From NCBI GenBank assembly GCA_038998335.1, contig JAVZHQ010000001.1, positions 224,001-288,000 of the forward strand: 64,000 bases of DNA, given 5' to 3'. Position numbers and translations under genes: made by a program. The notes under the pieces were generated by a model. The model was not told the DNA's origin and did no database searches. It was given only the letters and a program-made list of their open reading frames with translations. The DNA comes from Candidatus Aenigmatarchaeota archaeon. Its GTDB lineage: Archaea > Aenigmatarchaeota > Aenigmatarchaeia > CG10238-14 > SCSR01. Numbering within the stretch: position 1 is the first letter of the stretch; each line of letters begins with the position of its first letter. Below are positions 4,146 to 41,372 of this stretch, piece by piece.

Positions 4146-4967
4146 GTTTAAGTAGGCTTCCCTTATTCCTCTAAACCCAAGATTTTTTGCTTGCAACTTT
4201 GTGAAGTATTTTCTTCCAAGCTTTTCTATTCCTTTGTGAATTCCTGAGCTGTACTGAAAAGATTTCTTGACTTTGAAAGCAATTTCTTTTGGTACACCAA
4301 GCTCAAAAGCAATTTCTCTGGTTATATGCTTTCTTAAGTTATCTTCTGGGCTTTTAATTTTAAGCTGAAGAGGAACTTTTTTTGCAAAATTTATGAAATT
4401 TTGGTCAAGAAAAGGTTCTGAGTAGCTTATTCCAAAAAAACTTGCAATTTTCCTTACAGCTTCTTGGTTTTCAAAAGCTTTTTCTAAGGTTCTTTCCATA
4501 AACTCAAAAAAGGCATCTTCGCTTATTTTTAAAAACTTGCAAAATCTTTTATAACCGCAAAACAATTCATCTAAACCGTTAGCGCTTAGAACAACTTTTA
4601 TATTATTTTCTTTCGCAAGCATAAAGGTGAAATAAAAACCGACTCTAATTTCTAAGTCAACCAAGGTTTTGGGTTTTGTGAGTGAAATTACTTTTTTAAT
4701 CCCTTCTTCCAACTCTTCTAAACTTAAGGGTTTAGTATAATGAGGAAGATTTAAAGCCTGACTCGAGATTTTTGAATTTTTTAAATCGAAAGAATTTTCT
4801 AAACCAACGGTTAAAAGCTTAACCTTTTTCCCTAGCCTCTCACAAGCTTTCGCAAGCAAAGAGCTATCACAACCACCAGAAAATGCAATTCCAACTTCTT
4901 TTTTTCTACAATTTCTTTCTATGGTTGAAAAAATTTCTTCAATTAATTTTTGCTTTATTTCTTCCAT
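4101..4967 (-). CDS. asparagine synthase C-terminal-domain protein (PP-loop ATPase, no glutaminase domain)
   Basis: AFSGGCDSS, GLDELFCGY, PFLD, KKSFQYSSG. Confidence 0.8.
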   Translation of the reverse strand: MEEIKQKLIEEIFSTIERNCRKKEVGIAFSGGCDSSLLAKACERLGKKVKLLTVGLENSFDLKNSKISSQALNLPHYTKPLSLEELEEGIKKVISLTKPKTLVDLEIRVGFYFTFMLAKENNIKVVLSANGLDELFCGYKRFCKFLKISEDAFFEFMERTLEKAFENQEAVRKIASFFGISYSEPFLDQNFINFAKKVPLQLKIKSPEDNLRKHITREIAFELGVPKEIAFKVKKSFQYSSGIHKGIEKLGRKYFTKLQAKNLGFRGIREAYLNLLNSGQNFKNNSSS

Positions 4968-5018
4968 AATTTTAAATATTAAGGTAATTAAAAGTTTAAG
5001 TTGAATTATTTAATAGAA

Positions 5019-5104
5019 GCAGGGGTCGCCTAGCCTGGTCAAGGGCGCAGGCCTGAGGCGCCTGTGGCTTAGTGCCTTCCTGGGTTCAAATCCCAGCCCC
5101 TGCA
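5019..5104 (+). tRNA. tRNA-Leu(GAG), no intron, CCA not encoded
   Basis: Acceptor GCAGGGG/CCCCTGC; anticodon arm CAGGC-CTGAGGC-GCCTG; long variable arm; GTTCAAATC. Confidence 0.95.
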
Positions 5105-5214
5105 CTAGATTCTATTCCCATGCACTTGACAGGATTTATCATAAACTCTAAATTATACAAGGAAAGATGGCATCTATTAGTAGACTTAAATCTTTTTCTA
5201 ACTATATTTTTACC

Positions 5215-6357
5215 ATGAGAATAAAATATTCTGATTTTGTTGATTATAGAAAACTAGACCCTGTTAAAAAAATGGCTTTAGAAATTTTTGAACCAACTCT
5301 AAAATATCCTGAAAGATTAGGATTAAGACTACTACCAGAAAGTTTAGGGCAGACAGCTCCTATTTTTGAGCCTGTTGGAATAAAAGATTCAGATTTTTTG
5401 ATAGTAGGTCCAAACGTAGAAGGACTTGGAACAAAAAACTTAGTTGCAGATTGCATGTACAATGAAATTGTTGAGAAAAAAAGGATTGCAGAAAATTTGG
5501 ATGTTAAAAAATTGTATAGATGTATAGGACAAGATACAGCTGCTATGTCAGTTAACGATGTTTTGGCCGTTGGTGCAGACCCATACGTTTACTGTGATAT
5601 AATTGCATGTGGAAAAGCATCATGGTTTGATGACCTTGAAAGAACAAGAGAATTGCTGTTAGGATACAGACAGGCTGCTGATATAGGACAGTTTGCAATT
5701 CCTCAAGGTGAAACTCCTGAACTACCTGGAATAGTAAACTCTGAAACTTTGGATTTGGCTGGAGCTTCTTGCGGGCTAGTAAGACCAAAGAGCAGATACA
5801 TTACTGGAGAAAAAATAGAGGAAGGGGATATAATTTATGGACTTGCAAGTAGTGGGATTCATGCTAATGGTTTGAGCAAGGCAAGAAAGATTGCAGAAAA
5901 ACTTCCTGAAGGTTTCTTTACAGAGCTATCTAACGGAAAAACCTTAGGTGAAGAACTTTTAACTCCTACTCACATTTACTCTAGGTTAGTAATGGAATTG
6001 TTTGAATTTATAGATATTCACTTTTTACAGCCAATAACTGGGCATGGATGGAAAAAAATTATGAGGGTAAGAAAACCTTTTACCTATGTGATAGAGAATG
6101 TTCCAGAGCCATCTTTAATCTTTCAGGAATTAATTGAGTTTGGGAAAAAATATGGTTTTGATGTTTCTGATTTTGAAAATTATCAAGTATGGAATATGGG
6201 CGTTGGATATATTATCATAGGGCCTAAATTTGATGTAGATGCTGTAAGAAAAGTAGTTAGAAGAAATTCTAATATAGAAGTCTACGAGTTGGGCTATGTA
6301 AAAAAAGGAGAAAAGCAAGTAATAATAAAACCAAAAAATATTGTGTATAAGGATTAA
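5215..6357 (+). CDS. purM: phosphoribosylformylglycinamidine cyclo-ligase (AIR synthetase)
   Basis: EGLGTK, AMSVND, GETPELPG, SSGIHANG, ITGHG, WNMGVG; start reassigned to ATG 5215. Confidence 0.88.
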   Translation: MRIKYSDFVDYRKLDPVKKMALEIFEPTLKYPERLGLRLLPESLGQTAPIFEPVGIKDSDFLIVGPNVEGLGTKNLVADCMYNEIVEKKRIAENLDVKKLYRCIGQDTAAMSVNDVLAVGADPYVYCDIIACGKASWFDDLERTRELLLGYRQAADIGQFAIPQGETPELPGIVNSETLDLAGASCGLVRPKSRYITGEKIEEGDIIYGLASSGIHANGLSKARKIAEKLPEGFFTELSNGKTLGEELLTPTHIYSRLVMELFEFIDIHFLQPITGHGWKKIMRVRKPFTYVIENVPEPSLIFQELIEFGKKYGFDVSDFENYQVWNMGVGYIIIGPKFDVDAVRKVVRRNSNIEVYELGYVKKGEKQVIIKPKNIVYKD

Positions 6358-7808: not shown

Positions 7809-9068
7809 ATGTACATTCCCAAGAAGACCCTTTTTATTCCTCTTGATGGTACAGTTGATATTTCAGATTATCTCCCTATAATAGATTCATTTTACTTTCA
7901 AAGACTGGATGGAGTTAAACAATTAGATACAGCTGAAACAGTTTACAGAGGAGCAAAGCATTCAAGGTTTGAGCACTCCATAGGGACGATGAATAAATTT
8001 AGAAGAATGTTTTTCCATAGAAATTTACCAAATTCTGATTTAAGCAAAGATGAGCTTAAAAAAGTAGAATTAGCTTCTTTGCTTCATGATTGTTCTCACA
8101 ACGCTTATGCGCATTTAACTGAAGTTATAGAGAAGTCTCTCACAGGAAAATCTCATGATGACAGGTGGGTAGAAACTTTGGAGAAGTATTTTGATAAACC
8201 TTTGAAGGAATGTGGTTTTTCGCCAAAAGATTTGAAAGAAGTTGCTGAGACAAATTTAAGAGAAATAATATGGGATATTGTTGGTGTAGACAAGCTAGAC
8301 TATATCCAGAGAGATTTTTATCATGTTGGTTTTCCAACTATAGAGATAGAACCTCAGCTTACTTATTCGATTTTTCTCAAGAGCAAAGGCCTTTGTATAG
8401 AAGAGAAGAGCTCAGCTTTGGTAACAAACTTCATTCATGCATGGTACGTTGCCCATTCTACGATTTACTGGAGAAAAGCTTGTTTGATACAAGCATCCAT
8501 GATGAGAAGAGCTATATGGGATGCTATTTCACAAGGTTATTTAGAATTAGAGAAAATGAAGGAAATGAGGGATTATGAAGTAGATTATACGCTTTTAAGT
8601 TCAAAAGGCAAAAGCAAAGAGTTGTTTAAAAAAATTCTTTCAAGAAATCTTTACAAAACTGCAGTTACGTTTAAAGTTGAAGGTTACTCTTACTTTGAGA
8701 GAAAAGGTAACAAGCCACTATCAATAGTAGAAGTTCCAGAAGAAGATGTAAATAAAATTTTTGTTGAGGACAGAAATTTTAAAGAAATCTTAGAGTTAGA
8801 AAAAGAACTCTCAAAAGAATTAACTACTGATGTAATAATTTCTACAACTCCACAGCCAGAAAGACTAAAACCAAAAGACCCAAAAATATTTTCTGCAGAT
8901 AGAGAAGAAGTTCAAAAACTTTCAGACATAAACAGTGATTTTTTAAGTTACCAAAAGAAAATACCTAATCATCTTTGGGTAGTAAGGGTTGTAGTTCCTG
9001 CTGAAGATAGAAAAGAAGTGTCAAGAATGTATAAAACAGTCGAAGAATACTTATACTCCAACTCTTAA
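7809..9068 (+). CDS. HD-domain phosphohydrolase (SAMHD1/dNTP triphosphohydrolase-like)
   Basis: FQRL..VKQL, HSRFEHSIG, LLHDCSH, VDKLDYIQRD. Confidence 0.85.
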   Translation: MYIPKKTLFIPLDGTVDISDYLPIIDSFYFQRLDGVKQLDTAETVYRGAKHSRFEHSIGTMNKFRRMFFHRNLPNSDLSKDELKKVELASLLHDCSHNAYAHLTEVIEKSLTGKSHDDRWVETLEKYFDKPLKECGFSPKDLKEVAETNLREIIWDIVGVDKLDYIQRDFYHVGFPTIEIEPQLTYSIFLKSKGLCIEEKSSALVTNFIHAWYVAHSTIYWRKACLIQASMMRRAIWDAISQGYLELEKMKEMRDYEVDYTLLSSKGKSKELFKKILSRNLYKTAVTFKVEGYSYFERKGNKPLSIVEVPEEDVNKIFVEDRNFKEILELEKELSKELTTDVIISTTPQPERLKPKDPKIFSADREEVQKLSDINSDFLSYQKKIPNHLWVVRVVVPAEDRKEVSRMYKTVEEYLYSNS

Positions 9069-9099
9069 CATTTTAAATATTAAATTACAAATTAAAAAT

Positions 9100-9576
9100 A
9101 TGGATGAAAAGGCAGAAGCAAAGGCTATTGAGGAAGAATTGAAAAAAGAGCTCGAATCTTACAAGGCAAGAATTTTGCCTCAGTATTCTAAGAAAGCTGG
9201 CAAAAAATTAAAAAGAATTCAAAAGTACTTAGCTAAACTTAAGCCTTTAAAAATAAAATTTTCTTCAGTTTCAAAAATTGAGGAAGAGGCTAGGAACACT
9301 CTAGCTCAACTCAAAACTCAGATTTCTCAAGCCAAAGAGAAAATAGGTTCTAACAAAGCAAGAATAAAAGCTTTGAAGCAAGAAATTAAAGATTTAAAAA
9401 GAGAAATTCCTTTACTCAAGAAGTATATAAAGGGATGGAAAAAGGAAAGGAAAAAAGCTGCAAAGAAACATAAAAAAGCTTCCAAACTTTTGAGGAAACT
9501 AAAAGCTAAGATTACAAAAATTGAGAAAAGAAAAGAGAAAGTAGTTAAAAGTATGAAAAAGTACTTTAGCAGCTAA
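9100..9576 (+). CDS. Lys-rich coiled-coil protein
   Basis: Heptad pattern; very basic C-terminal half. Confidence 0.65.
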   Translation: MDEKAEAKAIEEELKKELESYKARILPQYSKKAGKKLKRIQKYLAKLKPLKIKFSSVSKIEEEARNTLAQLKTQISQAKEKIGSNKARIKALKQEIKDLKREIPLLKKYIKGWKKERKKAAKKHKKASKLLRKLKAKITKIEKRKEKVVKSMKKYFSS

Positions 9577-11549
9577 ACCTCAATTTTTCCAAGCTCTTCC
9601 AAGCTCTCTAAGCTATTCATCTTTATCATTTTGTTTGAAATAGTGTAGAGTATATCGTCAATATACAAAGTTCTCTTTATTTCATAATCATAGTCGTAAG
9701 GTTTTTCAGTGTGACTAATTCTTCCCCTTTCACTTATTCCTTCTTGTGTAATGTTAAAAACATAAGCTCCTTGCCATTTTTGGATATAATTCTCTGCTAC
9801 AGAAACAGGAATGACTAGTAAGTTCTTAGATTTGCTGAACAAGAATGCTTTATGATCAGAAGAAACAAGAGTATAGCTTCCTCTTGTTCCTATAACAATC
9901 TTCGAAATTTCTTTTGGATTAGAAAAATCACTAACATCAAATAAAGAAATTTTTACTCCTAGCTCTCTTCCTTGGTCGTCAGCGTCTTTACCTATTCCTA
10001 TTAAATGGGTTCCATCGTAAGGGTGTAAATAATCAGAATATCCTGGAATTTTTAGTTCGCCAAGAATTTTTGGGTTTGTTTCATCTTCTAAATCAATAAC
10101 AAATAAAGGATCTGTTCTTCTAAAAGTTACCATGTAAGCTTTATCACCAACAAACCTTACAGCAAAAATTCTCTCAGTTCTTGCTATATTCTCTATCTTG
10201 CCTAAAATGTTTAAGTTTTCATCTAATGTATAAATATTGTTAAAAACTTCTCTTCCGTAGCTTGAAGTTGTTGCTATCCTAAAATGATTGTTGTCTTCGT
10301 CCATGGAAAATTGATTTAAAACACTTCCAGGCACTTCTCCGCTGACCTTATACTCTATGTTTCCTTCAGAAATTGAAATTTTATGGATAATTGTTTTCTC
10401 CAATTCTTTAATTATTTCTTCCATTACTTTTTCATATCTATTCTGCAACTCTTTCATGAAAGAAGCTGCTTGCTCAGGGTTAAGAGTTTTGGTATAATTT
10501 TCTATTACTTCCTCTATTTTGTTCATCTTATCATAAATGTTAATGTTTGATTCTTTTACTTCCTCTATTTTTTCCTTAACTTCCTGTGGAACTACAGGCA
10601 AGATTGCCTCATCTATTATTCTTTCATAAAAGTCATAAATGCTGTAGGTTTTAGTGTAAACTATGTAGATGTTGTTTGAAGAAACATAAAGATTTTGAGT
10701 TGCTCCTATGAGAAAAGTTTTAACGTTTATTTCTTCCTCATCGTTTTGTGTGTTTAAAGCTATAACATTAGTAAACGAATAAGAATAATCAAAAATAGGT
10801 GAGTAGTAAATTTCCTCAGCCTTTACTTCTTTTACTTTGTTTCCTTCTACTACCGAAGGAAGAATTATTTCATCCTCATAAAATTCTAAAGGTTCATTAA
10901 CTATAACATAAACATAATCTCCTATCATTCTTGAGTCATAATAGCTTCCGTTAAGGTAGACTTCTCTTGTAACTTTTGGGTTAGCTTTATCTGAAACATC
11001 ATAAACATAAATGTAAGTTTTTGGGGTGTAGCGATAGTAAGGAATTAGTCCTCCTCTATATTCTCTTAAAGGAAGAGGATAGAAATAAGATTCGCTAGCA
11101 AAAATCACAAGCTTATCTTTGTTTATAAAAATTCCTTCAATACTTTTGTTTAAAGAAATTTTTGAAACAACTTTCGCGTTTTCAAGAGGGTAAGCCTCAA
11201 CTATCGTTAAGTTGTTTCCATAAACGGAATAAATGTATTGGCCATCAGTCTTTACCACGTCTGCTTCATCTACCCCTACAACTTGAACGTTTGTTGCTGA
11301 ATACTCTTGAGCAGCCGGAACAGCCAAAGGAGCGCCTGTTTTAATAGACTCAATTCCATACTCTCTAGCTATACCTATTCCTACTAAAGGAAGGTATTGT
11401 TCGCTAGAGGATTTAACAAAATTTTTAAGTTCCTCGTAAGATGAAAACTTTTTAAGCTCTACTTTATAAGTTTCAGGTCTTTTCTGGTAAAGTATCGAGA
11501 AAACTATTAAACAAATAATTAGCAAAAGGATTACTTTCCATAGCTTCAT
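9573..11549 (-). CDS. secreted beta-propeller-domain protein (COG4880-like)
   Basis: Signal anchor; YSATNVQVVGVDEADVVKTDG; LNQFSMDE; VTFRRTDPLFVIDL; GELKIPGYSDYLHP. Confidence 0.85.
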   Translation of the reverse strand: MKLWKVILLLIICLIVFSILYQKRPETYKVELKKFSSYEELKNFVKSSSEQYLPLVGIGIAREYGIESIKTGAPLAVPAAQEYSATNVQVVGVDEADVVKTDGQYIYSVYGNNLTIVEAYPLENAKVVSKISLNKSIEGIFINKDKLVIFASESYFYPLPLREYRGGLIPYYRYTPKTYIYVYDVSDKANPKVTREVYLNGSYYDSRMIGDYVYVIVNEPLEFYEDEIILPSVVEGNKVKEVKAEEIYYSPIFDYSYSFTNVIALNTQNDEEEINVKTFLIGATQNLYVSSNNIYIVYTKTYSIYDFYERIIDEAILPVVPQEVKEKIEEVKESNINIYDKMNKIEEVIENYTKTLNPEQAASFMKELQNRYEKVMEEIIKELEKTIIHKISISEGNIEYKVSGEVPGSVLNQFSMDEDNNHFRIATTSSYGREVFNNIYTLDENLNILGKIENIARTERIFAVRFVGDKAYMVTFRRTDPLFVIDLEDETNPKILGELKIPGYSDYLHPYDGTHLIGIGKDADDQGRELGVKISLFDVSDFSNPKEISKIVIGTRGSYTLVSSDHKAFLFSKSKNLLVIPVSVAENYIQKWQGAYVFNITQEGISERGRISHTEKPYDYDYEIKRTLYIDDILYTISNKMIKMNSLESLEELGKIEV

Positions 11550-17473: not shown

Positions 17474-17490
17474 AAATAAATTATTAGAAA

Positions 17491-17576
17491 GCCCTGGTAG
17501 CTCAGTTGGTTAGAGCGCATAGTTTAGCGTAAGCTTGGTAAGCATGAGGTCCCGGGTTCAAGTCCCGGCCAGGGCT
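17491..17576 (+). tRNA. tRNA-Thr(GGT) with 12-nt intron at position 29/30 (17521-17532)
   Basis: Acceptor GCCCTGG/CCAGGGC; D arm GCTC/GAGC; removing AGTTTAGCGTAA restores CATGC-TTGGTAA-GCATG. Confidence 0.9.
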
Positions 17577-17688
17577 TTACGGCACAACCACAAATCCCTT
17601 ACCAATAAAAAGGGATATAACTAGTCAACAAAAGGGAAAGGCAAATTGCAGAAAAATTCTACGAGTAGTTTTGACGGTAATTATCATG

Positions 17689-31415: not shown

Positions 31416-31771
31416 AGTTTAAAGAAAAGCCAGTAGTTTTTCTTAAACTTGATTAAGCAGTATTTTCCTTGAAGCTTCTTACCTTTTACTCTAAAAACCA
31501 TTTTTTTATCGTCTCTTTCCTCAAGAACATAAGTTCCTTTATCCCAAATCTCAACTTTTCCTGCCCCATACTGTCCTTCTGGAATTTCTCCTTCAAAATT
31601 AGCATACTCCAAATCATGATTTTCAACTTGAATTGCAAGTCTTTTAACGCCTTTTTCTTTTGGAGGTTCTTTTGGAACAGCCCAGCTTTTAAGCTTGCCT
31701 TCCATTTCAAGTCTTAAGTCATAATGCAAATGCCTAGCTTGATGTTTATGGATTACATAAATTTTTTCCAT
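31412..31771 (-). CDS. stand-alone LigD-type DNA 3'-phosphoesterase
   Basis: HQARHLHYDLRLE, SWAVPK, RLAIQVENH, GQYGAG.VEIWDKG. Confidence 0.9.
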   Translation of the reverse strand: MEKIYVIHKHQARHLHYDLRLEMEGKLKSWAVPKEPPKEKGVKRLAIQVENHDLEYANFEGEIPEGQYGAGKVEIWDKGTYVLEERDDKKMVFRVKGKKLQGKYCLIKFKKNYWLFFKL

Positions 31772-31801
31772 ACTTATATTTTAGGAATAGAAAAATATGA
31801 T

Positions 31802-32425
31802 GTGGAGCAATTAGTTCAATTGATAGAAAAATTGAAAAAAAGCGAAGTAAGTAAATTAATTGAAACTAGGATTAAAGAATTTGAAGAAAACAGAAAAAAG
31901 TCAAGCGAAGAAATTTTTAAAGAGCTTTGTTTTTGTATTTTAACTGCAAACTTTAACGCAGAAAAGAGCATAAGAATTCAGGAAGAAATTAGTAATGGAT
32001 TTTTGTTTCTGGAAAAAGAAGATTTAGAAAAAAAGTTAAGGGAGCTTGGTCATAGGTTCCCAAAGGCAAGAGCTTATTATATAGTTGAAGCAAGGAAGTT
32101 TAAAGATAAGTTAAAAAAAATTATAGAAAGTTTGAAAGAGGAAGAGCTAAGAGAATGGTTAGTGGAAAACGTTAAAGGTTTAGGATATAAAGAGGCGAGC
32201 CATTTTTTAAGAAATATTGGTTATAAAAATTTTGCGATAATAGATTTCCACATTCTTGATGTTTTAAATAAATTTAAGCTTGTAAAAAAACCAAAAGTTA
32301 TAACAAAGAAAAAATACTTAGAGATAGAGAGTTTGCTTAGAAAAATTGCTGAAGAGGCTAAGCTAACTTTAGCTGAACTTGACTTATACCTTTGGTACTT
32401 AGAAACAAGAAAAGTGTTAAAATAG
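31802..32425 (+). CDS. ogg: 8-oxoguanine N-glycosylase/DNA lyase (Ogg2 type)
   Basis: ELCFCILTAN, GHRFP, KGLGYKEASHFLRNIG, IIDFHI, LDLYLWY; likely GTG start. Confidence 0.88.
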   Translation: MEQLVQLIEKLKKSEVSKLIETRIKEFEENRKKSSEEIFKELCFCILTANFNAEKSIRIQEEISNGFLFLEKEDLEKKLRELGHRFPKARAYYIVEARKFKDKLKKIIESLKEEELREWLVENVKGLGYKEASHFLRNIGYKNFAIIDFHILDVLNKFKLVKKPKVITKKKYLEIESLLRKIAEEAKLTLAELDLYLWYLETRKVLK

Positions 32426-32446
32426 TTTTAATAACTCAATCAAGGC

Positions 32447-33370
32447 TCAACTTTCTAACCTTAAACTTAAAATGTATCCGCTACCGTCGCAAACTCTTGT
32501 GTTAAATTCTGGGCAAGTTCTACAACTGCCAAAGCCAAGCTTATATTTATCAGCCAAGGTTCTTATTTTCTTCGTTATGTTATATCTGTATTCTGGCGAA
32601 GCATAATAGTATATGTATCTTCTATCTGGTTTGGTGAAGTATAGGCTTGCAATTTTATCTTTTATTTCTGGTAAAGCTTTTTCTATTCTTTCTTTATATC
32701 TCCAAACAATTCTCAATGTCCCAGAGGTAATCATTCTAACTCCAGCTTCTTTCACTTGCTTTATTAGTTCTTCCAATTCTTTTTCATCATCATTTAAATA
32801 AGGAACGATAGGGTCTATCCAGACAGTGGTGAGAAATTTTTTTGAAAGTTCTTTTAAAACTTCTAATCTTTTTTGTGGCGAAGGGGCGTAGGGCTCGATT
32901 TTTCTTGCTTTTTCTTTATCTAAAGTTGTTACGGTGACAGAAGCGATAAAATATTTTGATTTTTCTAAAACATCCAAATCTCTTAACATTAAACCAGGAT
33001 TTTTTGTTTGGACATTTATGGGAAAATTGTTCTTAACAAGGATTTTTAAAATCTCTCTTGTTATTTGGTACTTTTCCTCTTCATAAGTATACGGGTCTAC
33101 AATAGAAGAAAGGTAAACCAAACGTTTTGGTCTGTTTTTAACTTCCTTTTTAAGTGCTTCAACCAAACCTTCCCTAGGGATCGCAACTTCTTTTTGTATA
33201 CCTCGAGATAAGTCTTGGTATTTTTTTGATTTTTTATGAAAATCGGAGAAATATCTTCCATAACAATAAACACAACCTATAGAACATCCGATGTAGGGGT
33301 TGATCGTATACTTAGGAGGACACGTACAAAGCAATTTTTGAGACGATTTGAAATCTCTTAATACTTGCAT
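32447..33370 (-). CDS. radical SAM protein, spore-photoproduct-lyase-like (COG1533)
   Basis: INPYIGCSIGCVYCY, DPY, TKNP, IEPYAPSPQKRL; extra N- and C-terminal Cys. Confidence 0.82.
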   Translation of the reverse strand: MQVLRDFKSSQKLLCTCPPKYTINPYIGCSIGCVYCYGRYFSDFHKKSKKYQDLSRGIQKEVAIPREGLVEALKKEVKNRPKRLVYLSSIVDPYTYEEEKYQITREILKILVKNNFPINVQTKNPGLMLRDLDVLEKSKYFIASVTVTTLDKEKARKIEPYAPSPQKRLEVLKELSKKFLTTVWIDPIVPYLNDDEKELEELIKQVKEAGVRMITSGTLRIVWRYKERIEKALPEIKDKIASLYFTKPDRRYIYYYASPEYRYNITKKIRTLADKYKLGFGSCRTCPEFNTRVCDGSGYILSLRLES

Positions 33371-33381
33371 TATACCACAAG

Positions 33382-33966
33382 CTAATCTTTTAAGTAGTTC
33401 AAGTTAAGGAGGTATTCTCCTTTTTCCTTTATAAGATAGCCAAGCTTACTTAATGAAAACAAGCGTCTCAATATAGTAGATTTCCTATAGGTTCCTTTTA
33501 ACGGTGAAGGTATTTTTTGTATGAGTAATTCTGGTGTAATCTTTCCTTCTTCTGCAGCAACTTCCATTATCTTATACACTAGGTCGCAGTTAAAGTGTAA
33601 GGTGTGCGTTGGATACCTCTCAAGAAATTCTTTGAGTTTCTTTGAATGTTTAGCTACAAACTCATCCTTAGGTAGATCAAGCTTTTTTGAAATAATTTCG
33701 GCTGTATCATCAGGTATTGAGAGAAATTTATCGCAAGGAAGGTGTGGTTTGGTAATAAAAGGAAGGGAAGGAACAATGAAGCCTGCTTCAGTCAACTTCT
33801 TGCTCAAATATTTTAGCTCCTTTTCAGCTTCTCTTCTTTCCTTCTTTTTTTCTCTTAGCTGATTTTCTAGTGTATTTATTTCATTTTCAAGGATTTTATA
33901 AGCTTCTATTTTTTCTACAGCCTCGTCTATAAGCTTTTTGTATTCTTTCAATTTTTCAAGACTCAT
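33382..33966 (-). CDS. coiled-coil + winged-helix protein, paralog 1
   Basis: MSLEKLKEYKKLIDEAVEKIE...LSKKLTEAGF; C-terminal STILRRLFSLSKLGYLIKEKGEY. Confidence 0.7.
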   Translation of the reverse strand: MSLEKLKEYKKLIDEAVEKIEAYKILENEINTLENQLREKKKERREAEKELKYLSKKLTEAGFIVPSLPFITKPHLPCDKFLSIPDDTAEIISKKLDLPKDEFVAKHSKKLKEFLERYPTHTLHFNCDLVYKIMEVAAEEGKITPELLIQKIPSPLKGTYRKSTILRRLFSLSKLGYLIKEKGEYLLNLNYLKD

Positions 33967-34034
33967 AATATCTATGAAATTAATCGAACAATTAAGGATT
34001 TAAATTTAATTTTTATAGAACTTTTAGGACTGTC

Positions 34035-36332
34035 ATGGCAGGGAAAAAAGAAAAATTCGAGAAATTAGTAGAGCTCTTGTTGGCAAACCCTAAAATCAAG
34101 TACCATGAAATACCTACAAACCTCCATTGGACTCTCCGAAAATCTTTTGGTGGAATTAACAACGCAAAAAGAGCTCTGAGGTTAGACGCTTACATCTCAA
34201 AAACTTATAGTTCAAAACTTCCAACCCCAGAGGAGGTAGATAAAAATTTTGCTGAACTAACAGAGAAGCTAGGAAGGCATCCTACTTATGAGGAGTTTTA
34301 CGAACATTTTCCTTCTTCCTATTACGTGATTAGAAAAGGCTTATATCCTAACGTTAAAAGTTGGAAAGAATACATTAGAAGTAAGGGTTACGAACCTTAT
34401 GATAATAGAGGGGTGATTTCTGACGAGCAGATAATTGAGCTTATAGAAAGAGGATTGAGTGATGCTGAAATTGCAAGAAAATTAGGAAGAATCACAAGAA
34501 AAGGTGTTGCCTACAGAAGAAAAAAATTAGGATACCCTCCTTTTTCAAGGAAAAAATTTACTGACGAACAATTGGAAGAGGCTATAAAGAAAAGTGGAAG
34601 TTATTCTGCAGCTGCAAGGCTTCTAGGAGTAAACTCTAGTAGTTTAGCTGAAAGAGCAAAGAAAAAAGGTATAGAATCGCCTTATATCAAAAGAGTTCAT
34701 CCAATTAAAAAATTTTTAAAGGAACAAGGCCCTTCTTTAGGTTCTGAAATCATTGCTGCGGTTGGAAACTTTAACGTGGGAAGATGGGTCTTATACGAAG
34801 GTAAAGACGTATGCTCGTTTCGCATACCAGGATATAAAAGCAAATTATATTTTCTAAAAGGACAAGAAGAGGAAGCAAAAAAGAAGAAAATTTTTTATAT
34901 AAACAAAAAAATTGAACCTCTTTTAGAGTTTATTAAAGCTAACCCAGACTGTACACGTACAAGAATAAGAAAAGAGGGGTTTGACAGTATTATTCGTTCA
35001 TGCTTTGATGACTCTCTGGATAAGGCAAAGATAATTCAAAGGTGTATCCAGTTAGGCAGGAGGGATTTAGCCAATCAACTATTACAACAAATTAAAAACT
35101 TAGACCTGAAAGATATGGAAACGTTAGTTTCTTTGTACCAAAATGAAGCGCAAAACCAAGAAGAGGATGTAAAAATTGAATATATAGACGTTTTAAGAGA
35201 GCCTAGCACTGCAAGAATCTATACAGAATCTACAGAAACAGAAATTGGAGACATTTTACCAAAAAAGCATTTTAAAGGAAGAAGGGTTATAGTAAAAGGT
35301 TTGAAACAAGCTGAAATGCCTAAAGAAATACCAATTTTATTAAGACTGGAGAGAGCGAAGAATACAATAGATTCGTACTTTATTCATAAAAAAGAATTGG
35401 AAGGAAAGGAAGAATACCTAAGAGAAGGCTATAGAATAACAAGAGCTTATCAAAGTAGTTATAGATTATTACAAAACTTGTTGAATTTGGAAGAATTAGA
35501 AGGGAAAACAGTTTTAGACTTAGGATGCGGCTCAAATTCTCCTTTAATGCAAGTCTTAAAAGACAAAAAAATTAACGCCAATGTTGTTGGGTTAGACAGC
35601 CACAAAAAATCTTTACAGATTTGTAAAGAAAAATTTTCTGAGAATGAATTTATTCAGGGTTTATATCCCTACACTCTTTTCAGCTTCAGAAGCAACAGTT
35701 TTGATTGGATTTTTGCGATAAATTGTTTGCATTACACAAATGAAAAATCTGAAATTTGTGCAACATTAATTGGTTTAGATCAGTTACTGAAGAAAGGTGG
35801 AAGAATTGTAATAATCGAACCAAGGTCTCAATCTAAGATGAAATTCAATGCTGAATTGAAGAAAAACCTTAGTGAGATGGGTTATAATGTAGAAGAGTAT
35901 AATAAATATATAAAGTGGCCAGGACCACAATACTCTCATCATCTAATTCTGGTAGGCGAAAAAATAAATGAGGTAGATAGGAGTCAGGAGTATAAAAAGG
36001 CTATTGCAGCAAGTTTGATTAAAACAAACAGGTTTGAGGAAGCTAAGAAGATTGTTGAAGATTTGGGATTAACGCTAAGTGACATAATTAAGGAGAAAGA
36101 GAAAGAAATGGTATGCATCAGAAAGCCAGAAATAAGAAAAGTTTACAAAGAACCTAAGAGAGTTTTCAGTTTTGAAGAAAACCTTAAACTATATTCTCTG
36201 ATAAAAATGGTTAAAACTACAAAGATATATTCGAGAGATTTAGCAGAAAAAATGTTTGATAAGATTTTCAATTATTATTTTCAAAAAACCGAAAAATTAA
36301 AAAAATTTCGTCCTTACGTTGGTTCAAGGTAA
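34035..36332 (+). CDS. multi-HTH protein fused to a class I SAM-dependent methyltransferase (MTase A)
   Basis: GLSDAEIARKLG and SYSAAARLLG HTHs; VLDLGCG, VGLD, FDWIFA, LLKKGG. Confidence 0.8.
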   Translation: MAGKKEKFEKLVELLLANPKIKYHEIPTNLHWTLRKSFGGINNAKRALRLDAYISKTYSSKLPTPEEVDKNFAELTEKLGRHPTYEEFYEHFPSSYYVIRKGLYPNVKSWKEYIRSKGYEPYDNRGVISDEQIIELIERGLSDAEIARKLGRITRKGVAYRRKKLGYPPFSRKKFTDEQLEEAIKKSGSYSAAARLLGVNSSSLAERAKKKGIESPYIKRVHPIKKFLKEQGPSLGSEIIAAVGNFNVGRWVLYEGKDVCSFRIPGYKSKLYFLKGQEEEAKKKKIFYINKKIEPLLEFIKANPDCTRTRIRKEGFDSIIRSCFDDSLDKAKIIQRCIQLGRRDLANQLLQQIKNLDLKDMETLVSLYQNEAQNQEEDVKIEYIDVLREPSTARIYTESTETEIGDILPKKHFKGRRVIVKGLKQAEMPKEIPILLRLERAKNTIDSYFIHKKELEGKEEYLREGYRITRAYQSSYRLLQNLLNLEELEGKTVLDLGCGSNSPLMQVLKDKKINANVVGLDSHKKSLQICKEKFSENEFIQGLYPYTLFSFRSNSFDWIFAINCLHYTNEKSEICATLIGLDQLLKKGGRIVIIEPRSQSKMKFNAELKKNLSEMGYNVEEYNKYIKWPGPQYSHHLILVGEKINEVDRSQEYKKAIAASLIKTNRFEEAKKIVEDLGLTLSDIIKEKEKEMVCIRKPEIRKVYKEPKRVFSFEENLKLYSLIKMVKTTKIYSRDLAEKMFDKIFNYYFQKTEKLKKFRPYVGSR

Positions 36333-36385
36333 AACTTTTTGGTAAAGCTTAAATTTTTTACTATTTTTAATAAGTTAAGATAAAC

Positions 36386-37099
36386 ATGGCTCTCGAAAAA
36401 TTAATAGAATACAAAAAAATGTTGGATCGAGCTATCGAACTTATCGAAACCTATCCTAAGCTTCAAGCAGAGGTGGAAAGTTTAAAAAAACAATTGAAAG
36501 AGAAAAAGAAAGCAAAGAAAGAAATAGAATTAGAACTTAAAGATTTGAACAAAAAGTTGGCAGAAGCAGGCTTTTCTGTTAAAATAGAAGAAATTATGAA
36601 GGAACCTGTTACACTTACACCTCCCAAAACAGTTGGAATACTTCAAACAATTACCAAAACAATTCTTGATTATAAAGCTGGAGAAATATTTCGTCGCAAA
36701 GACGTTTATGAAAAATTCCCACCAGAAATAAAAGAAAAATATCCTGACTACTTGAAAGTTGAAGGAAATATCGGAAAAATACTTAACAACTTAATCAAGA
36801 AAGGTGAGGTTATAAAAATTAGGTTTGGAACTTATAAAAGAGTTGGTAAGACAGAAGAAGTTGATAATCCAAGCCATTATTCAGAACCTATAAATAAAGC
36901 ATATAGTGTTATACTGACATATGAACCTGGTAAAAGGTTTACTTATAGAGATATCAGGGAAAAATTGTTACAGGATAGGGAGGTGCGTGAGTATAGAAAG
37001 GGTTTGTCTTTAAGAATAATTCAAGCACTTCAGTTAGCTGTTGATAGCGGAAAAGTTAGGAGAATTGGAAGAGACGTTTACGAGAGGTTATCTAACTAA
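36386..37099 (+). CDS. coiled-coil + two winged-helix-like domains, paralog 2
   Basis: MALEKLIEYKKMLDRAIELIE...LNKKLAEAGF; two repeats ending GEVIKIRFGTYKR and GKVRRIGRDVYER. Confidence 0.75.
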   Translation: MALEKLIEYKKMLDRAIELIETYPKLQAEVESLKKQLKEKKKAKKEIELELKDLNKKLAEAGFSVKIEEIMKEPVTLTPPKTVGILQTITKTILDYKAGEIFRRKDVYEKFPPEIKEKYPDYLKVEGNIGKILNNLIKKGEVIKIRFGTYKRVGKTEEVDNPSHYSEPINKAYSVILTYEPGKRFTYRDIREKLLQDREVREYRKGLSLRIIQALQLAVDSGKVRRIGRDVYERLSN

Positions 37100-37114
37100 T
37101 TGTTTAGAGTTAAA

Positions 37115-38995
37115 CTAATCTATTCGTAACCTAGGTAAGCTTTTTATATATTCTCTCAATTTTTGTTCATACTTTTCTTTTGCTTCTACATACTCCTTCT
37201 GTGCTTCCTCATAGATTTTTTGTGCTGAAAGACCTAAAAGTCTTGCCAGATTTCCTAAAGAGACAATTATTGTATCTGTAGGCCAACCTAAAAATCCATC
37301 TCTCCTTCTTATTTTCTCTTGTAAATCTAACATGATTTTGTGGGTTTTTTTCCATGAGATATAATGATTTGCAGCAAGATTTTTTACTTCGTTCATAGAA
37401 ATCATCCAAGGATATTTTCCTTCTTCTCTATATTCAAATAAGTCCATTATAAAATCTTTACATCTCTGATCTTCAGGATATGTTTGAAGCCATTTTTTAA
37501 GTTTTGCTAGCAATTTCTTATGAGTTCTTACAAAAATTTTGGGTGGTTTGAACTTTGGTATTCTTATTTTCTTCTCAACATCTATACCTTCTAATTCTTC
37601 TATTTTTTTGAAATAATCTTTTAAAGTATGGTTATAATTTTCCGCGATTTCATACGCACGAAGCAAATACATGGTTTTTTCCTCAGCATCACTTCTGTTT
37701 TTTGCAGCTTTAAGATAACTCATTCCAACCCCTTTTACATAAGAGTTAGTCTTATCAGTTTGAAGTGTTTTTTCAGCTATTAACAGATAAAAATAGGAAG
37801 GTTTCAAACCAACCCAATCAACTTTTAGCCTTTTCTCATGAAGGTTGTAGCTTAGACTTTCTAAATATTGTTTGGTTTCTAAATGACTTACTTTTTGAGA
37901 TCTTGGATGAACTATGAAAAATTTTCCCCCTTTTTTAAGGAGCTGGTGTAGACCAGCTAAAGTAGCATATTTCTCGATTCTGTTGTTAAAATGCATAGAA
38001 CATACAGCAAAAATGTAATCAAATGCATTATCAACAAAAGGAAGGGTATAAGGAAAATTTGCTTGTAAGTAGTTTTGTTTAGGAAATGTTTCCTTACTAA
38101 GCTTGAGGAATTTTTGGCAATCGTCCAAACCAATTACTTCAGCTTTTATGCCCTTTTTCTCAATTACATCTATCAAGGGAGACTTACATCCACAACCCAA
38201 ATCCAAGATTGTTTTTTCGTTCAATTCTTCCGGATTTATATAAGTCTCGAACAAATCAAGAAGAAGTTTATATTCTGACATAATTGGCTTTGAATTTACT
38301 ATAATTTCTGCTACTCTTATATCGATATTTTTTGCTTTATCATGAAATTCCAAACTATCTCTCACTTTTTTCATCCATCCAACTACTTTCATAATTTCTG
38401 CAGGACCTATAGAAACTTCACCAGCTTTTAGTGGTCTTAAAACATAAGATTTTGCCCTTCTTCTTCCAACTTCTCTCCACGCTTCAACTTCTGCCTCCAT
38501 GTCTTTTGTATAAGTGTAGTGTTTACGGAATATTCTATTAAAGCCTCTTTTTAACCTCTTTCTTTCATTTCTCTCAGGAATTTTTTCGATAAGTTTATAG
38601 AAGTCAAAAATCATTTCGAGACCGTGAGCAGAAGGAAATCTAGGAATTTCTTGGTGTAAATAATTTGCTATTAAATCTCGAATTGGTTTAGCTATGTAGA
38701 TAACAACCTCTTCTGGAACTTTTTCTGTTTTTGGAAATAGCACGTTTGTTATATCGTCAAGAGTAGAAAATTTTAAGTATCGAAAAATAAGCTCAGAAAT
38801 AAGAGTTTCTTGGTCTTCTTTCAGGTTTGACAAGTTAAGAACTTTCTTGCTATATCCCCTTACAATAGAAGGAAGATTACTCCTTAAAACTGCATATATT
38901 TCTCTAACTTTTTCCTCGTCTCTGATTAAATGCTCTATCTCATCTTTATAGATTTTCATTATCGTTTTGGGAAGACTTTTCAATTCTTTTCGCAT
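37115..38995 (-). CDS. large class I SAM-dependent methyltransferase (MTase B), paralog of MTase A
   Basis: ILDLGCG, IGLD, FPYTL, FDYIFA, ATLAGLHQLLKKGG, PRSQ. Confidence 0.8.
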   Translation of the reverse strand: MRKELKSLPKTIMKIYKDEIEHLIRDEEKVREIYAVLRSNLPSIVRGYSKKVLNLSNLKEDQETLISELIFRYLKFSTLDDITNVLFPKTEKVPEEVVIYIAKPIRDLIANYLHQEIPRFPSAHGLEMIFDFYKLIEKIPERNERKRLKRGFNRIFRKHYTYTKDMEAEVEAWREVGRRRAKSYVLRPLKAGEVSIGPAEIMKVVGWMKKVRDSLEFHDKAKNIDIRVAEIIVNSKPIMSEYKLLLDLFETYINPEELNEKTILDLGCGCKSPLIDVIEKKGIKAEVIGLDDCQKFLKLSKETFPKQNYLQANFPYTLPFVDNAFDYIFAVCSMHFNNRIEKYATLAGLHQLLKKGGKFFIVHPRSQKVSHLETKQYLESLSYNLHEKRLKVDWVGLKPSYFYLLIAEKTLQTDKTNSYVKGVGMSYLKAAKNRSDAEEKTMYLLRAYEIAENYNHTLKDYFKKIEELEGIDVEKKIRIPKFKPPKIFVRTHKKLLAKLKKWLQTYPEDQRCKDFIMDLFEYREEGKYPWMISMNEVKNLAANHYISWKKTHKIMLDLQEKIRRRDGFLGWPTDTIIVSLGNLARLLGLSAQKIYEEAQKEYVEAKEKYEQKLREYIKSLPRLRID

Positions 38996-39027
38996 GATCT
39001 CGAATAGTTATCGAATAATTAAAACTT

Positions 39028-40049
39028 TTAAGATTTACTGTAAAGAGAGCCTAAGATATCATTCAATTTTTTCAACGCAAAAACAAGGTTTCTATTTAAG
39101 GAAAACTTGGATAAAACTTCATCGTCACATTTTAACAAAAAATCAAGTAGTTGAGTTACGGGAATTTCGTACTTTCTTAATATCTCAGTAATACTATATT
39201 TTTTAAGCTCTTCCTCTAAGTTTAGTTTAGGCTTTATGTTACTGGCAAAAAATAGCTCTCCCTAAATACATAAAATGTTTGAGAATCAGAAACTTCTGTT
39301 TGAATTTTACCCTCTTCTACTAAATCAACAAGTACTAAAAGACCACAACTTCTTAACATTTTTCTGCTCAACTTGTATGTTCGCGAAAAATCTAAAAGGC
39401 GTGATGCTAAATCCTTGTATTGGAATTTTTTGAGCTCTCTTGCATGAAATTCTATACTTTCTTTTAACTTTTTCATAAGTTCAATTTTTTTATCATCACT
39501 GAGCCATTCCGCTTTTTCCAAAAAGTCAGGAACATAAGGAAGCTTTTCACCTTTTGGAGAATAAATAGGATAATTATACACATACTCTTTTCCTGGTTTT
39601 GGTGTTTTTAATTTTATGTAACGGATATGTCTCTTATCATACAATCCTTCACTAACAGCTTTTTCAAGAAAACTTGATACTAGATTGCGTGTTTTGAGTG
39701 TATACGGTAAATTCAATTTTTTAATAATCGATTTTGGTGTGACACTTCTTCCTTCTCTTACTCTTTCTCCTGTTTTTGGGTCTAAACCCATTATTTCACT
39801 AGAAACTTCTATAACTCTTTCGTAAGTCAGTTCTTCTGGTTTAATGATTTTTGGTGCGATTTTTTCAAAAGTTATAGAAGGTAACGAAGAGACAGAAATA
39901 GAAAACCCAAACTTAAAAAGTTTCTTGTTTAACTCTTGGATTTCTTCCACGTTCTTTTCCAATTCTTTTTTGAGTTTTTCAAGTTTTTCAACTTTTTCTA
40001 CAGCTTCAGAAATTAAGTCTCTTTGTTCCTTCAATTTTTCTATCGACAT
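39028..40049 (-). CDS. coiled-coil + winged-helix-like protein, paralog 3; frameshift at the T6 run 39247-39252
   Basis: MSIEKLKEQRDLISEAVEKVE...LNKKLFKFGF from ATG 40049; the unshifted frame stops at 39234; the -1 frame stays open for 72 codons to 39028. Confidence 0.65.
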
Positions 40050-40295
40050 TTTTACCCATAATTTATTAAGCAGTAAAAAATTTAAGATTATACCCACAAA
40101 AGTAACAAAGTTATAAGAAAAAAATTGTTTCCAAAAAAGAATACGAACAATGGTTAGGAAAACCTGGTGCAATGATAATCAAAGCACAAAAAGTTTTTGA
40201 AGCAAGCGGTGAGTAAAATTGCTTGGTAGAGGTAGTGTAACAATAAGAATCATGAAAAAGCATGTTACTAAATTGCTGGAATAAGGGAATATAAA

Positions 40296-41372
40296 CTAAA
40301 ATGGTCTTTGTTCCCTTCTCAAAGAAAACAAGCTAGCAAGATTCCCAACTTTTGTTAACAAATCATAATAAAATAGTTCTAAATCTTTTTCTGTAAGCTT
40401 CGCTCTTTGGTCTGCTTCTATAAGAACAGAAGGCATTCCATAGTTTGCATGTCCACTCAAAGCAAGCAAAACAGAAGAAATAAAATTTGCAGTTTTTACA
40501 CAATCTTTTTCTCCTAGAAAATCAACTCTAATTGGTCTATCAAACTCAGCAGTTTTTAGATAGAATGAAAATATTGAATTTGAAAATTCACCAAACTCTT
40601 TTAGAATAGGATGCTTTTCTGGTTCAGAAGAATAGTTGAAAACACAAGTTCTTTCGTTTAGTTTTAAAGCATAAGTTAAAAGATTGGAGTCTTTTGAGTT
40701 TTCAAGCAAAGGTTTAAACTCTATCAGTTCAGGATTAAGATTAGCTTTTTCCTTTATTATCTCACAAAATCTTGTTCCTCTTGAGTCCTCTATTACTCCA
40801 GCCAAAACGCAATTTTTTTCTCTAGCTTTTGAAAAGAGGTTTAAATAAGATTGAATCAAGTTTTCGTAAGTTGGAAAAAGTATCGAATCCTTTGCTGGTT
40901 TTTCTGTGTAATGAGGAATTATTGAACCATCTAGAAAAATTATGTCAGGTTTAAAATTTTCTATAACTTCAGAAGCTGTAGAAGTTTCAATTATTTGTCT
41001 TTCATAGTTTGAGTTCATCTCAAGCTCTATCTCATGTAAAGGTTCAAAAACTATTTTTGGGATAGGTGTTGGTAAAGCTTCAGGATAATATTCAACTTTT
41101 TCAAGCTTTCCTTTTGAGTAAAAGAATATAACTCCAATTGCTCTCAACAATATCAAATCCATGCCATGTAAAGAACGTTTTACTATTCCTCCATCTACAC
41201 CAGCAATTTTTAAGCTTTCTAGGTTTGATTTTTCAACCTTAAAAATAGTTTTTTCCTCTATTCCAGAAGAAATAGAAATTTTTCTTAGAACTTCAGCAAG
41301 CCTTATTCTTTCTGATTCCATTTTTTCGATTTTCTTAGCAAGCTCTTCCGTTATCTTGAACAAATCTTCCAT
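40296..41372 (-). CDS. nurA: NurA nuclease
   Basis: IAGVDGG, IFLDGSI, GVIEDSR, YGMPSVLIEADQRAK. Confidence 0.85.
   Translation of the reverse strand: MEDLFKITEELAKKIEKMESERIRLAEVLRKISISSGIEEKTIFKVEKSNLESLKIAGVDGGIVKRSLHGMDLILLRAIGVIFFYSKGKLEKVEYYPEALPTPIPKIVFEPLHEIELEMNSNYERQIIETSTASEVIENFKPDIIFLDGSIIPHYTEKPAKDSILFPTYENLIQSYLNLFSKAREKNCVLAGVIEDSRGTRFCEIIKEKANLNPELIEFKPLLENSKDSNLLTYALKLNERTCVFNYSSEPEKHPILKEFGEFSNSIFSFYLKTAEFDRPIRVDFLGEKDCVKTANFISSVLLALSGHANYGMPSVLIEADQRAKLTEKDLELFYYDLLTKVGNLASLFSLRREQRPF

Follow-up and report, generated by a model that had tools for sequence, protein, structure and literature searches.

Solitary DNA methyltransferases and restriction-modification cassettes with helix-turn-helix (HTH) controllers combine a mobile methyltransferase gene with a small DNA-binding protein, and their presence varies from strain to strain. 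In the methylation-associated defence system (MADS), according to its preprint, the methyltransferase is of the N6 type and methylation of a DNA motif depends on mad2. DPANN archaea are host-dependent and have tiny genomes, and their mobile genes, epigenetics and defence are little known. Here we describe a 7.7 kb accessory island in a Candidatus Aenigmatarchaeota archaeon, located at 32430-40106 of the window, by which we mean the whole analysed stretch of 64,000 nucleotides (contig C1, 224001-288000; source genome G000, 1.0 Mb, 90% complete). All coordinates are window positions, and G, L, P and X labels denote genomes, loci, proteins and runs of this analysis. The island encodes two large methyltransferases (MT1 and MT2), a radical S-adenosylmethionine (SAM) protein (rSAM) and three small proteins with a long N-terminal helix (coil1, coil2 and coil3). 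Together they make a compact module that looks selectable, in which each of three SAM enzymes has a matching putative DNA-binding partner, and which varies between strains of one hot-spring population. Our tentative reading, from sequence comparison and structural models, is that it may be a DNA-directed mobile SAM-enzyme module in which the coil/winged-helix proteins would act as adaptors or regulators.

The island lies between two genes of the core genome, ogg (31724-32425, + strand; Pfam Ogg-HhH, E 1.3e-63) and nurA (40296-41372, − strand; Pfam NurA, E 5.8e-16), each kept in four of the five same-genus genomes. These flanking genes, and the LigD phosphoesterase gene in the flank on the ogg side, had been named in the initial annotation and were borne out by a Pfam scan of the neighbours. 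Nucleotide homology to same-genus loci ends at 32429 (32527 in G004:C42) and restarts at 40107 or 40297; within the genus, the DNA between these breakpoints is found in G000 alone. In all five assembled copies of the locus, which come from four of the five same-genus genomes, ogg and nurA are adjacent and the island is absent, while the fifth genome (G002, 69% complete) has neither gene. The interval between the two genes measures 46 bp in G005 and ~225 bp in G003, holds a small class I methyltransferase open reading frame (ORF) in G001 (205 aa) and in G004:C10 (267 aa), and in G004:C42 combines ~295 bp of other DNA with the final 81 nt of the island rSAM gene. At the right edge of the island we found a remnant of such a resident small methyltransferase gene (40082-40213, + strand), which retains the final ~40 codons, interrupted by a stop (73% identity by tblastn, E 1.3e-16), and the island has therefore replaced most of that gene. 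These observations show that the cluster is an accessory island inserted over a resident gene. It is strain-specific, laterally acquired and apparently mobile, and not a fixed part of the repair neighbourhood. The metagenome-assembled genome G004 (5% contamination) itself holds two versions of the ogg-nurA locus, one with the small methyltransferase (L022, on C10) and one with the rSAM remnant (L019, on C42), which indicates a strain mixture in the bin and fast turnover of the site.

The runs from which DNA of the window was recovered are hot-spring metagenomes, and contigs of two other studies bridge the island junctions. In run X3 the island is covered to a depth of ~7 and its flanks to a summed 30-78; although depth does not measure the proportion of cells, these values fit a minority strain that carries the island. 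A 3.8 kb contig (L032, equal in size to G143:C11) is 98.8% identical to the island, with 42 substitutions and three single-base indels. Against this sister strain, the ratio of nonsynonymous to synonymous polymorphism (pN/pS) is 0.20 for MT1, 0.10 for coil2 and 0.15 for MT2, a sign of purifying selection on all three. Indels at 36887 and at 37674/37675 leave the sister strain with a truncated coil2 (168 aa) and a split MT2 (448 + 192 aa). Because contigs of runs X2 and X3 carry the same indels, these are genuine variants of the sister strain and not assembly errors.

The six island genes are open frames where the initial annotation placed them, apart from the end of coil3, and form three co-oriented pairs, in each of which a coil gene accompanies an enzyme gene. 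On the − strand, coil1 (33382-33966, 194 aa) precedes rSAM (32447-33370, 307 aa) by 11 nt, a gap already given in the initial annotation and in agreement with the gene coordinates. MT1 (34035-36332, + strand, 765 aa) is followed after 53 nt by coil2 (36386-37099, + strand, 237 aa), and coil3 (39234-40049, − strand, 271 aa) after 238 nt by MT2 (37115-38995, − strand, 626 aa). The first two pairs diverge from an AT-rich region of 68 bp between coil1 and MT1 (33967-34034), which by its sequence resembles a promoter region and may serve as one.

MT1 and MT2 are 39% identical over 236 aa (E 1e-42), and both pass the Pfam cut-offs of Methyltransf_11/25/31. MT1 scores 51.1 bits for Methyltransf_31 (cut-off 27) and 43.3 for Methyltransf_11 (cut-off 21.2), and MT2 scores 46.0 for Methyltransf_11 (cut-off 21.2). 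Motif I, LDLGCG, begins at residue 494 of MT1 and at residue 264 of MT2, and the GLD motif, which holds the acidic residue after strand 2, is conserved in the family alignment. The AlphaFold2 (AF2) model of MT2 has an overall predicted local distance difference test score (pLDDT) of 79.8, with 85-97 in the core, and Foldseek searches with it returned generic class I methyltransferases alone (E 1e-7; template modelling (TM) score by target 0.4-0.72). Profile, motif and modelled fold thus agree in showing that MT1 and MT2 are class I (Rossmann-fold) SAM methyltransferases. The initial annotation had described two large paralogs that share a methyltransferase core and lack the DPPY/NPPY and PC motifs, and both descriptions held: no [DNS]PP[YFWH], PC or ENV motif was found in either protein, so they cannot be placed among the N6-adenine/N4-cytosine or the C5-cytosine DNA methyltransferases.

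Outside the core (~470-645), MT1 has an N-terminal array of HNH_repeat and HTH units and a helical C-terminus. In MT2, a helical N-terminal domain and a pre-core strand lead into the core (~245-410), which in the model is followed by helical hairpins, a four-helix C-terminal domain and a long last helix (591-619). The structural look-alikes of this C-terminal domain are winged helix-turn-helix (wHTH)-like at a TM score below 0.5, a lead only, and ESM Atlas gave no feature hit for the domain. Members of the family range from 411 to 1163 aa, and their N-termini are variable arrays of HTH or HNH_repeat units. A pre-core strand (R.HYTYTKD/E..E) precedes the core; a helical segment (..SYLK..A...A....L.DL..EI...E.IDV) follows it and is succeeded by prolines, and many members end in a terminal helix with ..EW....L.I. 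In MT1 the HNH_repeat (PF18780) scores 20.6 bits against a cut-off of 26, and HTH is likewise below its Pfam cut-off. HTH domains are clear in P0002, an MT1-like relative of 935 aa, and HNH_repeat exceeds the cut-off in P0023, P0024 and the G333 member. The proposal that the methyltransferases are tethered to DNA is consistent with these predicted DNA-binding modules. A shorter member from G024 (L007/L097, G024:C4; 411 aa) carries GCEEC where motif I has GCG, so that SAM binding may be lost in this protein; the C-terminal domain and tail are kept.

Comparison of the coil proteins confirmed the earlier claim that three small paralogs share an N-terminus and have unrelated C-termini. Their N-terminal 52-66 residues are alignable, with Smith-Waterman z scores of 20.5 (coil1/coil2), 9.8 (coil1/coil3) and 8.5 (coil2/coil3), and none of 2000 composition-preserving shuffles per pair attained the observed score. 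The C-terminal parts show no detectable likeness in the same test (z 0.3-2.1), so that each N-terminal helix carries a divergent C-terminal domain. We take coil3 as the canonical form of the family. Its AF2 model (mean pLDDT 65) consists of one long helix (residues 3-46), a disordered linker, a winged helix (72-168) and a second helical domain modelled with lower confidence. The winged helix follows the order H-b-H-H-b-b. Averaged over blocks of ten residues, its pLDDT is 83-94 as far as residue 140 and drops to ~49 in the wing loop (141-160). VIA-align matched it to many unrelated winged helices (Z 6.0-7.6; root mean square deviation 2.1-3.7 over 56-75 residues), among them IdeR, Scc1-C (kleisin C-domains), Z-alpha, Fur and SSV1 F-112. 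The model thus supports a generic winged helix-turn-helix fold for this region; because the matches are generic, no subfamily can be named. Foldseek with coil3 returned nothing at E<=0.001, a search of PDB sequences with the coil profile returned coiled-coil noise alone (best E 0.006), and the best ESM Atlas score for coil3 (0.80) was at noise level. A prediction of the MT2-coil3 complex, each protein with its own alignment, scored 0.00 and returned no answer, which counts neither for nor against a contact.

The initial annotation had extended coil3 to 39028. This end was wrong: the coil3 stop codon is at 39236-39234, and the extension belongs to the -1 frame. We considered that a sequencing error might have split a longer gene, and rejected this because contigs of two other studies have no indel at the stop and the homologs in G074 and G147 terminate where coil3 does. 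The -1 frame itself is open for 76 codons after coil3 (39028-39258, − strand), occupies most of the coil3/MT2 gap and has no ATG, GTG or TTG near its start. A canonical slippery heptamer, T_TTT_TTG, stands at the start of this frame, ~7 codons ahead of the coil3 stop. Neither Pfam nor a comparison with 159 stored proteins yielded a match to this frame, which might be a frameshift extension of coil3, a small HTH-like gene that starts unusually, or of no significance.

To ask how far the two families travel together, we compared their occurrence across 371 genomes of the phylum. Members of the methyltransferase family scoring above 100 bits are present in seven (G000, G143, G024, G074, G101, G333 and G347). 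Coil proteins, sought with a profile of the three paralogs and the G074 protein, are present in four: G000, G143 (on the same 3.8 kb piece), G074 and G147. In all four, the coil gene adjoins a methyltransferase-family gene or the N-terminal repeat of one. The G074 protein has an N-terminal heptad helix and matches the central domain of coil3 (E 4e-8). Its gene is followed after 11 nt by a radical SAM gene, the same spacing as between coil1 and rSAM, and has a 787-aa methyltransferase-family gene and genes for three HNH_repeat proteins on the opposite side. These three (L093, G074:C3, at 4434-5969, 8382-9284 and 9303-9731 of that locus) flank the methyltransferase-family gene and are almost pure PF18780 repeats, with eight and five in the two scanned. 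Pfam detected no HNH or other nuclease domain in MT1 or in the HNH_repeat proteins scanned. In G147 the coil gene is transcribed away from a neighbour that the contig end truncates, and the first 103 residues of this neighbour match the N-terminal repeat of P0021 (E 4e-12). The G074 and G147 coil proteins were recognised via the winged-helix part only, and the N-terminal coil profile, run against the neighbours of other methyltransferase-family members, found only the island's own copy. The proposed association therefore recurs in G074 and G147, and the objection that the two families do not co-occur elsewhere fails; the pairing is not strict, since G024, G101, G333 and G347 have a methyltransferase-family gene and no coil gene.

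The third enzyme, rSAM, carries CxxxCxxC at residues 29-36 (CSIGCVYC) and scores 55.8 bits for PF04055 Radical_SAM (cut-off 29.5), which places it in the radical SAM superfamily. It resembles the SPL-like PA0069/Rv2578c group (COG1533 type) and lies outside the defined families, with 139.1 bits for NCBIfam PA0069 (cut-off 360), 123.5 for Rv2578c (cut-off 430) and 69 for 'radical SAM mobile pair protein B' (cut-off 410). The island copy is one of three SPL-like radical SAM paralogs in G000, the other two being housekeeping copies. Its best match outside G000 is the coil-linked gene of G074 (207 bits, 40% identity, E 3e-70), compared with 164-172 bits for the housekeeping paralog group. In the tree, the island and G074 copies fall outside the housekeeping clade (support 100/100).

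Both families are very rare. The methyltransferase profile gave 2532 matches at E<=0.001 among 1.84 billion representative proteins, nearly all of them generic cores, with 42 at E<=1e-10 and 14 at E<=1e-30. A word-indexed search of 5.8 billion proteins returned a fragment of the island's own methyltransferase and one relative, P0002, and for the coil family it added one 85%-identical coil3 variant. The ten representatives of the methyltransferase family that we looked up come from metagenome assemblies, as singletons or in tiny clusters; two bear generic methyltransferase names and none has taxonomy. In another DPANN phylum, that of a Ca. Woesearchaeota genome, one of 401 genomes gave a weak match of 79 bits, and an alignment scan of metagenome contigs gave nine loci, all generic cores at 23-36% identity. 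No coil protein was found in the 40 relatives first searched. The island's protein families are almost confined to one phylum, and their annotation offers generic methyltransferase names only.

The surroundings of the methyltransferase-family genes also differ between genomes. The G024 gene lies between those for adenylate kinase and ThiI, the G333 and G347 genes adjoin that for RNase P Pop5, and the G101 gene is on the opposite strand inside a ribosomal-protein operon, between the genes for L32e and L19e, which are neighbours in all four same-family genomes that have the locus assembled. Given these differing housekeeping contexts, the family behaves as a mobile gene. A separate insert in G147 (L111, G147:C109, 3417-6298), coding for a 735-aa protein without a Pfam match and holding a 173-aa ORF, is another foreign insertion within an Aenigmatarchaeota ribosomal-protein operon, here between the genes for L22 and S3.

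In the mechanism that we tentatively favour, each of the three two-gene units would supply a SAM-using enzyme and a small protein in which one long N-terminal helix is joined to one or more winged-helix domains. The enzymes would act on DNA or on DNA-bound targets. The conserved helix may serve as the contact among coil proteins or with the enzymes, for which the terminal helix of the MT2 type is a candidate site. The divergent winged-helix heads could pick DNA sites or operators, making the coil proteins targeting adaptors, local expression controllers or both. Such a module might write or edit a DNA mark useful to the mobile element or its host, for example in self-marking, defence or anti-defence. 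Several observations weigh against this proposal. The motifs that mark known DNA amino- and C5-methyltransferases are missing from the methyltransferase core, whose nearest solved relatives are small-molecule and rRNA enzymes. The coil/methyltransferase association comprises three independent loci only, and four of the seven genomes with the methyltransferase family have no coil gene, so the coil partner is dispensable. The rSAM tree leaves the sisterhood of the island and G074 copies as an open fork. Finally, the frameshifts in coil2 and MT2 of the sister strain, seen in three assemblies, mean that the module can decay in part of the population.

A wider version of this proposal, which we regard as unlikely, would make the island part of a new DPANN mobile DNA-marking element. 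Its centre would be a class I methyltransferase outside the amino- and C5-families, steered by HTH and homing-endonuclease-type repeats and entering housekeeping operons as a lone gene with no integrase. The fuller form would add the SPL-like radical SAM protein and the coil/winged-helix adaptors, and would write or erase an undescribed DNA modification.

The most serious competitor to a DNA-directed module, though a doubtful one, is that the coil/winged-helix proteins are ordinary transcription regulators, like the controllers of mobile cassettes, each tuning the neighbouring enzyme gene without forming a complex, whatever the enzymes' substrate. There is one regulator-like gene per enzyme gene, and IdeR, Fur and MarR match the winged helix as well as any other family does; the coil-less members of the methyltransferase family point the same way. 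Furthermore, coil2 and coil3 have in common an 18-nt promoter-like motif, 24 nt upstream of coil2 (36345-36362, + strand) and 23 nt upstream of coil3 (40072-40089, − strand). The two copies form an inverted-repeat pair (I19), are 94% complementary and have the same orientation relative to both genes. However, no shared operator palindrome was found across the island intergenic regions, and the N-terminal helix has been conserved while the DNA-binding parts diverged beyond recognition. This contrast suggests a shared protein contact, and not only the dimerisation of independent repressors.

It is improbable that the island is instead a decayed, integrated DPANN virus or plasmid whose proteins serve replication, partition or anti-restriction. 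Its strain-specific presence, its low depth in X3 and the insertion of methyltransferase-family members in housekeeping operons would suit such an element, as would weak PHROGs matches of rSAM to phrog_13321 (E 5e-43) and of the MT1 N-terminus to phrog_323, 'D5-like regulator' (E 4e-6). Against this, Pfam gave no integrase, capsid, terminase, replicase or partition ATPase, and the PHROGs rows for MT1 are weak and regulator- or exonuclease-named only. Across the Pfam, PHROGs and PADLOC scans, the six island proteins include no integrase, restriction nuclease or virus hallmark protein. Only one row bears a nuclease name, that of phrog_704 for MT1, and it is weak (E 0.0032), with no stretch passing alone; with that reservation the cluster is, as first described, free of nuclease and integrase genes. 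There are no notable flanking direct repeats, the island ends sharing only an 18-nt low-complexity pair (D13) where attachment-site repeats were sought. The GC content of the island equals that of the genome, and 2.9 million viral contigs yielded one generic match and no true member of the methyltransferase family.

The initial annotation had likened the coil proteins to H-NS/Rok-type silencers that oligomerise through the coil, with methyltransferases that methylate them or chromatin, or that sense SAM. The architecture of an N-terminal helix and a C-terminal DNA-binding head, in three paralogs with variable heads, agrees with this, yet we consider it very unlikely. A chromatin organiser should be far more widespread than a family found in four of the 371 phylum genomes and in none of the five same-genus ones; Pfam at E<=0.1 detected no DNA-binding domain of the H-NS or Rok type in coil1-3, and coil2 is frameshifted in the sister strain. 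That MT1 and MT2 are ordinary small-molecule methyltransferases in a fortuitous cluster is scarcely credible: their top Pfam, NCBIfam and PDB matches are UbiE/BioC/MitM-type enzymes, but a further 400-500 residues, which include HTH, HNH_repeat and wHTH-like modules, are kept across the family, coil/winged-helix genes are adjacent in three loci, and biosynthetic neighbours are absent.

Two observations concern the window more broadly. In the ~3% that was read of each of two metatranscriptome runs from the study of X3, no reads fell on 11 kb, which says nothing about expression. At 17490-17577, ARAGORN called a tRNA with an odd four-letter anticodon (ttag), which scores 52 bits for the Rfam tRNA model.

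If the substrate is DNA, the island would add a methyltransferase lineage, perhaps with a radical-SAM step, to the known DNA-marking routes, and would offer a handle on single-gene invasion of ribosomal-protein operons. If the enzymes do not act on DNA, it would still be a neat case of an accessory island that carries regulator-enzyme cassettes. The initial annotation recognised no described system here, and we likewise matched none in Pfam, PHROGs, PADLOC or the literature; searches of the main literature records yielded no published work on the methyltransferase or coil family.

The island nevertheless shares parts with several known systems. Like the Methyltransf_11/25/31 enzymes UbiE, BioC, Bud23 and MitM, MT1 and MT2 have the class I core fold and motif I LDLGCG. 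They differ from these in their size of 626-765 aa, the pre-core strand, the post-core helices, the HTH, HNH_repeat and wHTH-like flanks and the terminal helix of MT2, and they approach no NCBIfam equivalog cut-off. The PADLOC mad2 profile of MADS matches the cores of MT1 (E 5.6e-13) and MT2 (E 1.4e-7). This match is limited to the Rossmann core, and no other mad model matched among the six island proteins, so the island falls outside MADS. Among SPL-like radical SAM proteins (COG1533; PA0069, Rv2578c and 'radical SAM mobile pair protein B'), rSAM shares CxxxCxxC, the Radical_SAM domain and ~220-260 aligned residues; it differs in scoring far under their cut-offs and in being a third, island-borne paralog. 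The repeat of homing-endonuclease-associated proteins (PF18780) recurs in MT1 (below cut-off), P0023, P0024, the G333 member and the three G074 neighbours, and these carriers differ in that Pfam detected no HNH or other nuclease domain in them. The coil proteins recall H-NS and Rok in their helix and DNA-binding head and depart from them in sequence and fold, in the winged-helix nature of the head and in their sporadic distribution. Its overall plan is shared with the solitary DNA methyltransferases and restriction-modification cassettes with HTH controllers, from which the island differs by lacking (D/N/S)PP(Y/F), PC/ENV and a restriction nuclease and by having a radical SAM partner. From this comparison we infer that the island is a mobile methyltransferase cassette with DNA-binding partners, a known kind of arrangement, built from protein families that are themselves undescribed.

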